This document shows, one piece after another, positions 2,855-59,422 of a DNA stretch of 64,000 nt. Position 1 is the first letter of the stretch, and each line of letters starts with the position of its first letter. This stretch comes from a virus (lineage: Duplodnaviria > Caudoviricetes), in the IMG/VR virus record IMGVR_UViG_3300032007_001727; one strand, given 5' to 3'. The translations under genes and the position numbers were made by a program. Under the pieces are notes generated by a model. That model ran no database searches. It was not told where the DNA came from and saw nothing but the letters and a program-made list of their open reading frames with translations.

Positions 2855-2972
2855 AATTTTTTGGTGTTTTTTATTAAAAAACATTAAAATAATGTGGGAT
2901 ATCTTGTGTATCTCACATTTTTTTTATACTTTTGCAAAAAATGATGGTACAAACACAGAAAGAATAATCACT

Positions 2973-4364
2973 ATGCAGATATTCAAAGAAGAAAGAATTA
3001 TCAAGTTAATTGAGTTCATAAAAGATGAAATTAAGGATACTGCCTTCAGAAACCATGTATTCGTGGTCGGTGGCAGCATCAGAGATTCATTATTGGGACT
3101 TAAGGTAAAGGATATTGACTTGGTGGTGGACATCCCAAACGGAGGTGTATTACTATCGACGTTCTTGACAGCCAAGAACAACTGCTATAGAACCGGAAAG
3201 AACCCCGTCATTTACAACAAATACGGTACCGCAAAGTTCCAATTTCTCAACCACAACGAATTCAACGACATTGAAATAGAGTGTGTACAAACTAGGAAGG
3301 AACAATACCACAATGAGAGCCGGAACCCAAAAGTCGTATTCGGCGAACTTGAAGAAGATGCCAAGAGAAGGGACTTTACGGTCAACTCAATTTACTACAA
3401 CATTAGCAGTGATAGGATAGAAGACCCGAATAACGGGTTGGATGATATTCTAAATGCTGTCATCAAGACTCCGTCAAACCCAAGAATAATCTTCATGGAA
3501 GACCCGCTCAGAATTCTGAGGGCGGTGAGGTTTTCTTGTAAATTGGGTTGGGGTATTGAAAAGGATACTTGGTTGGGCATGATTGAAAATGCCCATAGGA
3601 TAGATATCATATCCCAAGAAAGAATAACCGATGAGATAACCAAGATTTTGACATCACACAAGCCTAGTGTCGGGATAAGGAAGATGCTAGGGTGCGGATT
3701 GCTACATAGGGTATTGCCGGACATATACGACCTAATTGGCGTATCTGAGTGCGGCAAACTGTCTCTGTTTGACCATACAATGTCTGTGTTGGATGTCGTA
3801 AACCCGTGCATAGAGCACCGTTTAGCAGCCCTTTTCCATGATGTGGGCAAAGTCGTTGTCAATGGGGTTAATTCAAAACACGTTGATGTCCCCTCTTTCA
3901 GCAGTGATATTGCCTCCCATGACTTGTTTATGATGAAATATCCGAATTCCGTAATAGATACGGTTGAAAAGGCAATCAAGTATCACATGGCCTTTTCCAA
4001 TTACGGGGAATATGAAATCCCAAGGGATAAGATACTCCGGAAATTCATTCATCTAGTAGGTGATTCGATTGCACCGACATTCGACCTTATGAATGCAAAC
4101 AACGCATTCTGCGGGCGAAACAAGAAGAAGACCCAAGTCATGAACATACTGAACCGGATGGAAGAGTTGGAAAACATAGAAAATATGCAGAATGTTAAAC
4201 TTCCGGTTTCCGGAAAGGATATTATGGAGAAATTCAATCTGAAACAGTCTCCGCTGATTGGTACCCTCTTGAATGAGATAAGAGAGGCTTATTTTGAACG
4301 TCCGGACATTACAAAGGAAGAGTGCTTTGAATTGGTAGACAAAATCTTAAATAAAGTTATCTGA
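2973..4364 (+). CDS. cca: CCA tRNA nucleotidyltransferase (class II) with HD domain
   Basis: VGGSIRD, DIDL, RRDFTVN, EDPLRILRAVRF, ERITDE, FDHT...LFHDVGK. Confidence 0.93.
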   Translation: MQIFKEERIIKLIEFIKDEIKDTAFRNHVFVVGGSIRDSLLGLKVKDIDLVVDIPNGGVLLSTFLTAKNNCYRTGKNPVIYNKYGTAKFQFLNHNEFNDIEIECVQTRKEQYHNESRNPKVVFGELEEDAKRRDFTVNSIYYNISSDRIEDPNNGLDDILNAVIKTPSNPRIIFMEDPLRILRAVRFSCKLGWGIEKDTWLGMIENAHRIDIISQERITDEITKILTSHKPSVGIRKMLGCGLLHRVLPDIYDLIGVSECGKLSLFDHTMSVLDVVNPCIEHRLAALFHDVGKVVVNGVNSKHVDVPSFSSDIASHDLFMMKYPNSVIDTVEKAIKYHMAFSNYGEYEIPRDKILRKFIHLVGDSIAPTFDLMNANNAFCGRNKKKTQVMNILNRMEELENIENMQNVKLPVSGKDIMEKFNLKQSPLIGTLLNEIREAYFERPDITKEECFELVDKILNKVI

Positions 4365-29860: not shown

Positions 29861-29974
29861 ATGAGTAAAAGAAGTTTCAAAAGAGCGGTTGCGGCCGCAA
29901 AGGTTACGGCCATCCCGTCAAAGAAGAAAGGCAATGGACAAGATGCCATTCAGTTGTACAACGTGTACAAATAG
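29861..29974 (+). CDS. Small basic peptide (37 aa)
   Basis: MSKRSFKRAVAAAKVTAIPSKKKGNGQDAIQLYNVYK, after the cassette at 29821. Confidence 0.5.
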   Translation: MSKRSFKRAVAAAKVTAIPSKKKGNGQDAIQLYNVYK

Positions 29975-30153
29975 GTAGCAGCACTACCGAATTTACGCTT
30001 GTGGACTACCCAACTGCCGAAAGGCGAACCACACGAATGTGTGGGGCTATGGATGACAGACTCGGCAATGAGGTACTAAAAAGTAGTGGTAGGTTGAAGC
30101 AAGAAGTTAATAATGGATAAACAAATTTGTTCAAGTTTTAACATGCTGTACAA
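29971..30153 (+). mobile_element. Orphan TnpB omegaRNA / right-end-like element
   Basis: Translates to IGSSTTEFTLVDYPT[11 aa]MDDRLGNEVLKSSGRLKQEV, resembling the TnpB tail that overlaps the omegaRNA (recalled similarity); flanked by a TGTACAA direct repeat. Confidence 0.6.
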
Positions 30154-56802: not shown

Positions 56803-58134
56803 TTACTTTTTATAGCAATTTTTGCGAATATTTATCAGAATATCATTGATGAGGCCAATATCTATTGATTCCTTTATTGTTGAAGTATTTATGGCCTTAT
56901 CCAATTCAACCATATTGGAATTGAGGTTTTCAATTAGTTCATCATATTCGAACTTATGGTTTCTGATGTCCAACAAAAATTCTCTGTCCCAAGTTCTTTC
57001 AACATTCACGCCGTTGCCTTCCGCTATTTCTTTCCCCATATGTATGAGTCTGAAGCAATGCATCATATTCTTGGAATCATAATTCTTATGGAGATTGCTT
57101 TCATATCTCTTCTGATTCCGGTATTTCTCCCAATCCTTATAATTCCTATAATCCACACAATGTTTCTTGTATGCATTTTCATTGAATGATGCATAGCATA
57201 TCGGTTTTTCCCCCTTTGATACGGAAGTTAATTTCAAGGATTGTGATTTGGGGCCGACGCACCCATTATACCGTGTGGGTTTTTTATTTTCATACCATTC
57301 ACCAAGTCTATCTTTGATGTCACCATCATTAATTCCATAGAAATTTATGATAAAATCAACCATATTGCTGATGTATGATTTATTCAATAGGTTCTCATAA
57401 GATTCTTTTTCCTCTGTCGTGGATGCCTTGAGGTCGGAAACTAGTTCATCGGTCTTGAGTTTACCTATGTTATCCAAACCTTCAAATATGTCACCAATGG
57501 TTATGTTCTCTTTTAGGAAGAACGTACCCCAATCGTAATACACGCCATACATATCTTGCATGTTTGGAATTTTAACCAATCCGCAATATTCTTGCTTCAA
57601 TCCCCTATATGACAACCAATTCTCCAATTTCGTGCTTCCTTGATTAAAGAATGTATATGTAAAATCGAGCACCCCTTTTCTTTCAACTCTCTCCTTTTCC
57701 CAATTTATCATCTTGTTCAAGCCTTTCGCCTTTTCAATCTGTGCCCTAGCATACCCGATAAACGGTTTAAAACATTCCTTTGTGATGAATTCCTCCTTGT
57801 TTTCAAACAAAGGTATGATGACATCATTCGGAGGTGTTATAATCTTATATGTTGGAACAAATAGAGCCTCCAATGTATTTGGATTGGATTTTAACAACAT
57901 ACCGAAAAATTTACCAATTTCGTAGAAATTGTTATCGTTCCTATCATCTGAGACAAGGTCTTCATAGAACATGTCCAAACCGTATAGTTTTTCCTTTGGT
58001 ATTATGAAAATACCTTTTGTGTCAATGTCACTGCCATCGACATTTAGGTTATACAAATGGGAACCGGAAATATACGAATAAACCAATTCTCCCTTTTCTT
58101 TCGGAAATTTAAAAGTAAAATTATTGATGTCCAT
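56803..58134 (-). CDS. Predicted nucleotidyltransferase (RlaP/YcgL, T4 NrdC.11-like)
   Basis: GSHLY.L....SDIDTKGIF, NPNTLE.LF, YDSKNMMHCFRL. Confidence 0.85.
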   Translation of the reverse strand: MDINNFTFKFPKEKGELVYSYISGSHLYNLNVDGSDIDTKGIFIIPKEKLYGLDMFYEDLVSDDRNDNNFYEIGKFFGMLLKSNPNTLEALFVPTYKIITPPNDVIIPLFENKEEFITKECFKPFIGYARAQIEKAKGLNKMINWEKERVERKGVLDFTYTFFNQGSTKLENWLSYRGLKQEYCGLVKIPNMQDMYGVYYDWGTFFLKENITIGDIFEGLDNIGKLKTDELVSDLKASTTEEKESYENLLNKSYISNMVDFIINFYGINDGDIKDRLGEWYENKKPTRYNGCVGPKSQSLKLTSVSKGEKPICYASFNENAYKKHCVDYRNYKDWEKYRNQKRYESNLHKNYDSKNMMHCFRLIHMGKEIAEGNGVNVERTWDREFLLDIRNHKFEYDELIENLNSNMVELDKAINTSTIKESIDIGLINDILINIRKNCYKK

Positions 58135-58150
58135 TATGAATAAAAAAATG

Positions 58151-58476
58151 TAGTCCCTAGGAGAGTCGAACTCCTCTTTAGAGAGTCAACTACCCACGAA
58201 CCAAAGATTCGTGGGCTTGCAGAAAACCTTTAGCGGGTTTTGAGCGTTTGGGCAGTTGACGGTGCCCTGCCAACCAAGGCAACAAGTCTTCCGTCAATCG
58301 GAAGAGGTGTCGAGGTTGGGTGTTCTGTAATGTTCACTGACGTGTTCCAATCAGCGTCGAAGACTTCTGATTAGAGAAACTGATACCACTTGCTTGCTTG
58401 CAAGCGTTGCCTTATATGTCAGTATGTGTTTGAACATTATGAAAATCTCTCGTCCTAACCGATAGACGAAGGGACC
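58151..58476 (-). tRNA. tRNA-Glu(UUC) interrupted by a 254-bp insertion at the 3' edge of the anticodon loop
   Basis: 5' half GGTCCCT TC GTCTATCGGTTAGGAC G AGAGA TTTTCAT; 3' half TCTCT AAAG AGGAG TTCGACT CTCCT AGGGACT A. Confidence 0.9.
58185..58438 (-). mobile_element. Non-autonomous IS200/IS605 remnant: tnpB 3' fragment with omegaRNA/right end
   Basis: Fragments MFKHILTYKATLASKQVVSV and VFDADWNTSVNI (RuvC-III-like); ends in the hairpin GCCCACGAATCTTTGGTTCGTGGG-TAGTTGAC; preceded by TTCAT. Confidence 0.82.
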
Positions 58477-58606
58477 AAGAAATTCTTTCCAAATGCCATA
58501 ACTACTGCTCATCTACGTCCGTCCGTTGATTTTGATACTATCTCAAGGTTACAGACTTTACGGCGCTACTATTAACCTTTTTTCGCTTTTTTCTTTGGAA
58601 AGAATA

Positions 58607-59422
58607 TTATTCTTCAAACGTTATCCTAGATTCGACATATTGCCTATCCTCACCTTTAAGGATTGGCATTTCGTAATCTATTAGCCAACCTTCATCGGAT
58701 TTAACCACCGCTGTCCCTCTCTTTTCGGCAACAGATAAGTTATTCCAATTTATGTTGAATTTTTCCATCAGCATATCTTGAATTTGTGAGGTATTCTTTC
58801 CTTTTAATTCCTTATGGGAGAAGAATGCTTGACCTAGGCTGCTAACCGAATTCCTAGAACAGTCTTGTTGTCTCCAAAGGATACAGTTTGTAACCTCAGA
58901 CAATGGGACGTTGAATACCCTAGCATCGAACAAGGCACCGGTCTTTAGTGCCCTCTTATATCCATTTATGGCCCTTTCAACCATTTCGGATGCATCGCCG
59001 TATATTTCACGGTAGTCACCGTCGGTTCCATATTCAGAAATGAAGGCATTTGCCTTTTTGGCAAATATTCTGTTGAAATACAGTGTACACATGGATGCAA
59101 CGACCGAGCATACTTTTTGTACGTTATAGTCAAACCATGCACATGTATCCAATGTATTATAGTCCACCAATACTAGGGTAATCTCATCGGATTGGGTATA
59201 GCCAAAGACGCAGCCTTGAATGTTTTTGCAGAGTTCCAATGTAGTTTCTTGCATTGTCTCCATGAACCTTTGGTCAAACGGCTTCACAAAGCCTTTTGTG
59301 AAGGTATGGAACGCCTTTCCGTCCAATCTTATAATAACCGGTGTCCTCCTCAATAAATATGTTTTTGACCGATTCTCATAGTTGAGTTTCATCCGGTCAC
59401 CCAAACTATCTTTTGTTGCCAT
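58607..59422 (-). CDS. thg1: tRNA(His) guanylyltransferase Thg1-like protein
   Basis: DRMK.YE, IRLDGKAFHTFT, YTQSDEI, FDARVF, WRQQD..RNS. Confidence 0.92.
   Translation of the reverse strand: MATKDSLGDRMKLNYENRSKTYLLRRTPVIIRLDGKAFHTFTKGFVKPFDQRFMETMQETTLELCKNIQGCVFGYTQSDEITLVLVDYNTLDTCAWFDYNVQKVCSVVASMCTLYFNRIFAKKANAFISEYGTDGDYREIYGDASEMVERAINGYKRALKTGALFDARVFNVPLSEVTNCILWRQQDCSRNSVSSLGQAFFSHKELKGKNTSQIQDMLMEKFNINWNNLSVAEKRGTAVVKSDEGWLIDYEMPILKGEDRQYVESRITFEE

Follow-up and report, generated by a model that had tools for sequence, protein, structure and literature searches.

The stretch of DNA analysed here, referred to as the window, comprises 64,000 nucleotides (nt) of the virus record IMGVR_UViG_3300032007_001727 and is part of the genome of a huge rumen phage of ~366 kb. 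At 58476..58151, a tRNA-Glu(UUC) gene is interrupted in its anticodon loop by a 254-nt insert (58438..58185). The split gene is placed between a Thg1-like gene (58607-59422) and a RlaP gene (56803-58134). All of them are encoded on the minus strand, as are the features described below unless otherwise indicated. The insert almost certainly has the origin and the anatomy described in the following paragraphs: it derives from tnpB and the right end of an element of the IS200/IS605 type. What is new here is the link between this stump and a resident TnpB of the same family, with 388 amino acids (aa).

ARAGORN with introns allowed recovered the tRNA gene as tRNA-Glu(ttc), located at c[58150,58476] and containing 254 nt of intervening sequence; the gene was missed both by Rfam and by ARAGORN without the intron option. 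The coordinates of the tRNA halves and of the insert were verified base by base. The 5' half (58439..58476, tRNA positions 1-38), recognized by ARAGORN -i and by its identity to host tRNA-Glu, ends in the loop TTTTCAT. The last five of these nucleotides, TTCAT (58439..58443), correspond to the anticodon TTC, A37 and T38 and constitute the insertion target of the element family, as well as its predicted transposon-adjacent motif (TAM). The 3' half (58151..58184, positions 39-73, CCA not encoded) starts with the anticodon-stem strand TCTCT. The flanks TTCAT and TCTCT share no direct repeat and no duplicated bases. Three splice placements are compatible with a valid 7-nt loop. The junction is assigned to position 38/39, since the unsplit alleles (nine phage tRNA-Glu genes and 119 bacterial copies) read TTTTCAT immediately followed by TCTCT.

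After removal of the insert, a cloverleaf with a UUC anticodon is obtained. The insert-free 72 nt show full identity to 89 of the 119 host-clade tRNA-Glu copies among the matches listed, and within these matches the sequence is the commonest chromosomal tRNA-Glu of Prevotella-type bacteria. The matching copies belong mostly to Prevotella, Prevotellaceae and other Bacteroidales of the rumen and gut. The initial annotation of this locus had claimed that the insert lies directly after TTCAT without target duplication, that precise excision gives a perfect tRNA and that both halves are unmutated. The coordinates and flanks, together with the identity to host tRNA-Glu at 72/72 positions, agree with these statements. 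The 326-nt RNA of the split gene folds far more strongly than shuffled sequences (z = -6.3) and its predicted fold retains the acceptor stem. The split tRNA itself is most likely non-functional, as no splicing route is evident.

The insert (58185..58438) corresponds to the 3' part of a TnpB-only IS200/IS605-type element, with internal deletions and without a left end, as indicated by blastn and by alignment to the loci L102, L103, L104, L106, L107 and L255. Nucleotides 2-71 of the insert align to tnpB codons ~290-313 of the parent elements and nucleotides 75-254 to their final ~190 nt, at 83-93% identity. Two tnpB scraps are contained in it. Scrap 1 (58368..58437, codons ..MFKHILTYKATLA.KQVVSVS..) is a decaying copy of the start of the TNB domain, with 89-93% DNA identity to the parent elements and a tblastn match to TnpB residues ~290-318. 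Scrap 2 (58326..58364) covers the RuvC-III motif region FDADWNTSVNI and matches residues ~342-388 in tblastn; P0001 matches the TnpB C-terminus with 74-85% identity (E=2e-14). These are the values of the protein search (5.8 billion proteins) with the 46-aa frame of the insert, which matches the C-termini of six TnpB clusters, whose members contain 387-401 aa and the domains PF01385 and PF07282. Both scraps show 72-85% amino-acid identity (tblastn) and 83-93% nucleotide identity to tnpB. Searches of the stop-free scraps against Pfam and NCBIfam yielded a single weak match (scrap 1 to PF07282, E=0.079), and the link between the insert and tnpB was established by protein search and not by these databases. 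According to the alignments, internal deletions flank scrap 2, with ~80 nt (the zinc-finger coding region) lost before it and 9 nt after it. Besides these ~80- and 9-nt deletions, the insert has lost ~85% of tnpB, roughly 1 kb. An intact tnpB open reading frame (ORF) with the RuvC D-E-D triad is not present in the insert, which holds the two scraps only.

At the right side, the subterminal hairpin (58192..58216) is intact. Its stem is the last helix of the omegaRNA scaffold and covaries across the family, with 98.5% of the cells paired. The conserved terminus TTGAC (58185..58189), the right cleavage motif or transposon-encoded motif (TEM), marks the point where similarity among relatives stops. 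At the left side, no left-end hairpin is found in the insert: TTCAT is followed by one A and then directly by tnpB codon ~290. These results uphold the earlier description of the insert as two tnpB scraps plus a right end, on which tblastn, protein search and DNA alignments agree, with an intact right-end hairpin and no recognizable left end. Since the left end and most of tnpB are lost, the insert is immobile and protein-less. The left deletion begins 1-2 nt from the original left border, which is unlikely for a random deletion, and the junction reads TTCAT+A+ATGTTC, compared with TTCTAT+ATGTTC in the parent. Three origins of this border were considered, namely slippage at TTCAT-like repeats, an aberrant TnpA joint and a copy-in repair that was aborted following TnpB cleavage; none of them fits exactly. 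A look-up of the ORF spanning the left junction returned no record.

The family set comprises 22 relatives, full-length or partial, which without exception lie on phage-like contigs; many of these contigs measure 100-420 kb. The right ends of all relatives (19+) and of the insert consist of a hairpin followed by ...GTAGTTGAC, and the insert stops at the same base. The consensus of the family right end is GT(A/G)GTTGA(C/T), beyond which the sequence is unrelated from locus to locus. The left ends show the pattern GGAAACCC..loop..GGGAGGAAT after TTCAT. In 14 full-length loci the left-end hairpin is automatically detectable; TTCAT ends 25-33 nt before its loop in 13 of them (chance expectation ~0.04 per interval of this kind), and the 14th has CTCAT. 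In IS200/IS605 elements, the TAM is the motif located 5' of the left end (Meers et al., 10.1101/2023.03.14.532601). From the TTCAT flanking the left ends and the rule that the target motif equals the TAM, TTCAT is predicted to be the TAM of the family.

No close TnpB relative was detected among 401 host-family genomes, in which two matches at 26-29% identity are other TnpB lineages. Given this absence and the phage-like contigs of the relatives, the TnpB family is considered phage-borne. In the flanks of the loci with listed genes (L102-L106), tnpA was not observed; the phage genomes were not searched for PF01797. TTCAT is also the reverse complement of ATGAA, and in L104 (2336-2340) and L106 (508-512) the CAT of this motif serves as start codon for the minus-strand gene upstream. 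In L107, the CAT of the TTCAT just upstream of tnpB appears to be a start codon too. Such elements land precisely between a gene and its 5' leader, and the left end of the element becomes the new leader.

The omegaRNA scaffold (58185..58337) was delineated with RNAalifold and a covariance model and contains five covarying helices and a single-stranded tail, AGTTGAC. RNAalifold, applied to the last ~140 nt of 17 family members, gives five helices with 39 pairs, 30 of which have compensatory changes. Across the alignment 91.9% of the cells are paired, versus 28-44% in slid controls, and values as high as the observed ones did not occur in any of 500 shuffles. Of the 39 pairs, 36 are formed in the window copy, as in L107, and the same three exceptions are found in close full-length relatives. 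The covariance model scores the window scaffold at 136.4 bits (E=9.5e-36), the scaffolds attached to intact tnpB at 139 and 150 bits and held-out members at 49-117 bits. The scaffold of the insert therefore looks functional. The 200 nt upstream of it have a weak consensus fold of -6.3 kcal/mol with one small hairpin. A longer omegaRNA extending into scrap 1 was dismissed, because this upstream region is nearly devoid of conserved structure, and for the same reason the first ~110 nt of the insert are regarded as leftover coding sequence.

P0136 (388 aa), an intact TnpB belonging to the same family, is encoded outside the 64-kb window, on the same 366,366-bp ENA contig as the Thg1-like and RlaP genes of the window. 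P0136 was found by listing the members of the best-matching TnpB cluster. Its DNA was taken from the short-read contig L255, and the same sample also contains the Thg1-like gene of the window (L132). The catalytic motifs IGVDLG, VMEDL and FDADWNA are present in P0136; its RuvC motifs were read by reference to the related protein P0005, which had been aligned to solved structures of TnpB and Cas12f. The resident element (L255) has a left-end hairpin. In P0136 and P0005 (L255 and L103), the CxxC...CxxC zinc finger is degenerate (..NDCRSGSKNGTRKGCRYY..) and the RuvC motifs are retained.

The insert and the resident copy differ at 2 of 136 scaffold positions, both in loops (98.5% identity), and at 14 of 106 positions of the tnpB scraps (13%). 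With five outgroups, the changes that belong to the insert lineage amount to 8/106 in the scraps versus 1/136 in the scaffold (Fisher p=0.012), and several of the scrap changes are non-synonymous in conserved motifs. The ratio of scrap to scaffold divergence is 9 for the window and resident copies; between full-length relatives it is 0.4-1.5 in most pairs and ~3 with L107, the closest outside relative. These comparisons, in which the counts are small, suggest that the orphan scaffold is either under constraint or homogenised by the resident copy.

Since the insert ends exactly at the conserved right-end terminus, the scaffold is followed on its 3' side by the tRNA 3' half. In line with the accepted layout of TnpB and its omegaRNA, in which the guide adjoins the right end, the predicted guide is the first 20 nt of this half (58165..58184), which include the 3' strand of the anticodon stem, the variable loop and the T-stem, and the predicted target is TTCAT + TCTCTAAAGAGGAGTTCG. 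TTCAT plus the first 18 guide nucleotides has an exact match in at least 120 species genomes, mostly of Prevotella and Bacteroidales. The same sequence is exact in two of the nine phage tRNA-Glu genes (L094 and L097). In the remaining seven, guide position 12 differs and is a C. In the phage itself, the split gene would be immune, because the insert separates the TAM from the target.

The window also encodes a CCA-adding enzyme, a tyrosyl-tRNA synthetase (TyrRS), a phage sigma factor, a deoxynucleoside monophosphate (dNMP) kinase, a UvrD-type helicase and BspA-type leucine-rich repeat (LRR) proteins. The genes for the Thg1-like protein (a 3'-5' tRNA repair polymerase) and RlaP are conserved as neighbours in related huge phages. 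In L003, the nearest IMG/VR relative, the two genes are adjacent without a tRNA between them, which indicates that the gene context is not built around the tRNA. The gap between them in L003 (4001-5400) apparently contains small Cys-rich ORFs, as judged by eye, in place of the tRNA. Neither tRNA-Glu nor the scaffold is present in 92 loci around Thg1-like or RlaP relatives. The Thg1-like protein, RlaP, the CCA-adding enzyme and TyrRS together point to a phage module for tRNA repair and supply.

Two further features of the window resemble parts of such elements. Another orphan 3' tail of a TnpB, which belongs to a different family (~425-430 aa, HTH_OrfB_IS605), lies on the plus strand at 29971-30117 and reaches up to ~30170. 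It contains a 49-aa frame that is 94% identical to the C-terminus of P0008, with 216 proteins at E<=1, and has no tnpB body. A solo hairpin that resembles the right end of the insert's family is located at 2825-2888, adjoining the gene of the CCA-adding enzyme (2892-4364). It ends with GGGTAGTTCAT and is preceded by an A/T-rich tract. This hairpin has 77% identity over 74 nt to L103 4762-4834 and a weak covariance-model match (9 bits), and may represent a relic or else a regulatory hairpin that has been reused.

At the level of sequence, the comparisons show that a TnpB-only IS200/IS605-type element of a huge-rumen-phage family was inserted at its usual target, TTCAT, in a host-identical tRNA-Glu gene. 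The inserted copy then lost its left end and ~85% of tnpB, and kept the whole scaffold and the exact right-end junction. The earlier interpretation is partly supported, in that every part of it that sequence can address has stood. The guess that the parent TAM is TTCAT was borne out by the 13 of 14 full-length relatives, and the stop at the conserved terminus places the tRNA 3' half in the guide position, as proposed. The scaffold, whose failure to function would have counted against the interpretation, looks functional with its 36/39 pairs and 136.4 bits. The TnpB that was assumed to be available in trans is found as P0136 on the same phage contig. One point needs correction: the insert is not a "minimal element" able to move.

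A mechanism can be proposed on this basis. The co-directional transcription of the tRNA gene itself would yield a chimera of tRNA and omegaRNA. RNase P, 3' trimming and CCA addition could set the ends of the chimera, which is conceivable because the predicted fold retains the acceptor stem. The resident TnpB would bind the scaffold in trans and trim the 5' part, and the first 16-20 nt of the tRNA 3' half would serve as the guide. The complex would then cut DNA that contains TTCAT followed by the guide sequence, i.e., the unsplit tRNA-Glu(UUC) of the host chromosome and of some co-infecting phages.

The steps of this proposal differ in strength. On balance, the chimera RNA would probably be a competent guide for the resident TnpB, by a narrow preference. 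It is rather unlikely that the chimera is maintained by selection for a guide role. The complete reading, in which the stump is a domesticated second guide of the resident TnpB, expressed and matured in the tRNA transcript and aimed at every unsplit tRNA-Glu(UUC) in the infected cell, is unlikely and is put forward tentatively. Several points weigh against the proposed mechanism. Part of the guide is tied up in the tRNA fold, within its T-stem and anticodon stem. The asymmetry between scaffold and scraps rests on small counts, and gene conversion from the resident copy or a recent origin could produce it as well. Three deletions would spare a 150-nt scaffold by chance with a probability of ~0.2, according to our own rough geometry, and the deletion pattern alone consequently shows no selection. 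The unrelated TnpB 3' stump at 29971-30117 indicates that such relics arise here by plain decay. Furthermore, the benefit of cutting host tRNA-Glu genes is conjecture.

The strongest rival explanation is that the insert is an inert relic, a piece of transposition junk without effective TnpB loading, whose scaffold is conserved through youth or gene conversion. This is a serious possibility, though short of an even chance. The immobile and protein-less state of the insert speaks for it, and decay products are common in this genome, as the stump at 29971-30117 and the solo hairpin at 2825-2888 indicate. The deletions do not significantly avoid the scaffold, by the estimate given above, and no second tRNA junction was found in IMG/VR, the JGI metagenomes or the 401 host-family genomes. 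On the other hand, the window-specific substitutions fall in the scraps much more than in the scaffold (p=0.012), the scaffold scores on a par with those of intact elements and a cognate intact TnpB is encoded in the same genome. The position of the stump, inside the transcription unit of the tRNA and co-directional with it, also argues against mere junk.

It is very unlikely that the insert works as a tRNA intron whose excision from the transcript, through self-splicing or through RNA-repair enzymes of the phage or the host, would allow tRNA-Glu production to continue. The halves, perfect and identical to the host tRNA, would suit this explanation, as would the location of the gene between a Thg1-like tRNA repair enzyme and the RNA-repair nucleotidyltransferase RlaP, in a phage that also encodes a CCA-adding enzyme and TyrRS. 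However, no group I intron or other Rfam family was detected in 57900-58700, either at gathering scores or at E<=10. The insert ends in ...GAC, lacking the terminal G. An internal guide for a P1 helix is not present close by, and the sole stretch complementary to the exon end lies ~100 nt inside the insert. No bulge-helix-bulge could be drawn by eye at 37/38 or 38/39, and the loop residues are unable to pair with the 3' end of the insert for a central helix. Homology to tnpB and the right end already explains nucleotides 2-254 of the insert. The group I or non-tnpB origin that the initial annotation had named as a possible refutation thus gives way to a tnpB-derived insert without an Rfam match. 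In addition, the Thg1-like and RlaP neighbours of L003 have no intervening tRNA.

Still less probable is a mobile miniature element, comparable to palindrome-associated transposable elements (PATEs) or miniature inverted-repeat transposable elements (MITEs), that transposes as a 254-nt unit. The small size of the insert and its precise borders at the TAM and the right-end terminus would fit such an element, but it has no left-end hairpin and its left border lies inside tnpB coding sequence. No second copy was found in the window or in 837 kb of related phage loci. Exact patterns of the right-end hairpin plus terminus (31-nt) and of the right end plus tRNA junction gave 0 matches each in IMG/VR. 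The tRNA junction gave eight matches in JGI metagenomes, all by chance inside unrelated genes, and was absent from the 401 host-family genomes. A blastn search of INPHARED phages with 57600-59000 (setting 'distant') returned no match. The insert is an immobile stump without a left end.

An assembly artefact or chimeric contig is hardly credible: the data are metagenomic and the tRNA and scaffold are repeats that break short-read unitigs (L132, L255), but the junctions match the biological borders of the family, after TTCAT and after TTGAC, to the base, the 366-kb ENA contig shows the same 472-bp gap between the Thg1-like and RlaP genes, and the insert is not a mis-joined resident copy, since deletions and 16 substitutions separate the two. 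On that contig (366,366 bp), the exact neighbour proteins are encoded with the gene order unchanged. The unitig L132 stops within the 5' half of the tRNA, and L255 starts in the left-end hairpin and stops at ...GGGTAG, within the right end; these unitig breaks at the tRNA and element ends fit repeats, namely the host tRNA-Glu and the two scaffold copies.

TnpB elements are seen as selfish, with a guide that aims at the element's own empty site and thereby causes the transposon to be copied back into it. If the RNA of the split gene is active, a transposon guide would have been uncoupled from its nuclease and reused in trans, a step that is assumed to lie between TnpB and CRISPR-Cas12. It would also give the phage a means of cutting host or rival DNA at a tRNA gene, and would represent a naturally occurring guide RNA presented on a tRNA frame, an arrangement that is employed in genome engineering. 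Should the stump indeed be a domesticated guide, destruction or shut-off of host DNA and the cutting of co-infecting tRNA-carrying phages would be expected. It would then be a natural TnpB system with one nuclease and several guides, a step towards CRISPR-like arrays, and a natural fusion of tRNA and guide RNA. If the RNA is inert, the locus is a clean, dated example of element decay in huge phages. Even in this case a new TnpB family is defined, with its TAM TTCAT, its ends and its omegaRNA structure.

The closest known systems are the non-autonomous TnpB-only IS200/IS605 elements with omegaRNA (ISDra2 and ISGst2 types), which were reportedly described by Karvelis and by Altae-Tran in 2021 and were also treated by Meers et al. 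in 2023. The insert shares with them the tnpB-derived sequence, the subterminal right-end hairpin and the insertion 3' of a pentanucleotide that doubles as TAM, without target duplication. The scaffold likewise overlaps the 3' end of tnpB, and the guide just past the right end targets the empty site. Unlike these elements, the insert has neither left end nor tnpB ORF and is immobile, its family is phage-borne with a degenerate zinc finger, and its empty site is a universal host gene and not a private locus.

Protein-less derivatives of IS200/IS605 elements often encode omegaRNAs that need TnpB in trans (Meers et al., 10.1101/2023.03.14.532601). Like PATEs, the insert encodes no protein and has an omegaRNA that needs the TnpB of another element, which here is a cognate one in the same genome. 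However, PATEs keep both palindromic ends and can be mobilised, whereas the insert is a right end only, present as a single copy fixed inside a tRNA gene. Another parallel is offered by IStrons, which are chimeras of a group I intron and IS605, and by bacterial group I tRNA introns, as IS605-type sequence interrupts a gene, here at the intron site of the anticodon loop. In contrast to them, the insert has no ribozyme, Rfam match, terminal G, P1 helix or evident route for restoring the RNA.

Guides within tRNA transcripts are also known from archaea, where the intron of tRNA-Trp is a C/D box guide, as cited in PMC12558985. The insert shares with tRNA-intron guides and with engineered tRNA-gRNA fusions the placement of a guide in a tRNA transcript, whose ends could be defined, and the RNA stabilised, by tRNA-processing enzymes. 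Archaeal tRNA introns are excised at a bulge-helix-bulge and the tRNA survives, but the insert has no excision signal and its predicted guide is supplied by the 3' half of the tRNA itself. Orphan mini-CRISPR arrays carried by viruses are used against competing viruses. The insert resembles these arrays as a viral orphan guide that would borrow a nuclease and target a sequence intact in competitors and disrupted in the phage itself. It differs from them in that the system is TnpB and omegaRNA, the nuclease is encoded on the same genome and the main perfect target is the host chromosome. Among all these systems, the insert is set apart by the tRNA frame, by the host-gene target and by the pairing of a resident nuclease with a conserved scaffold.
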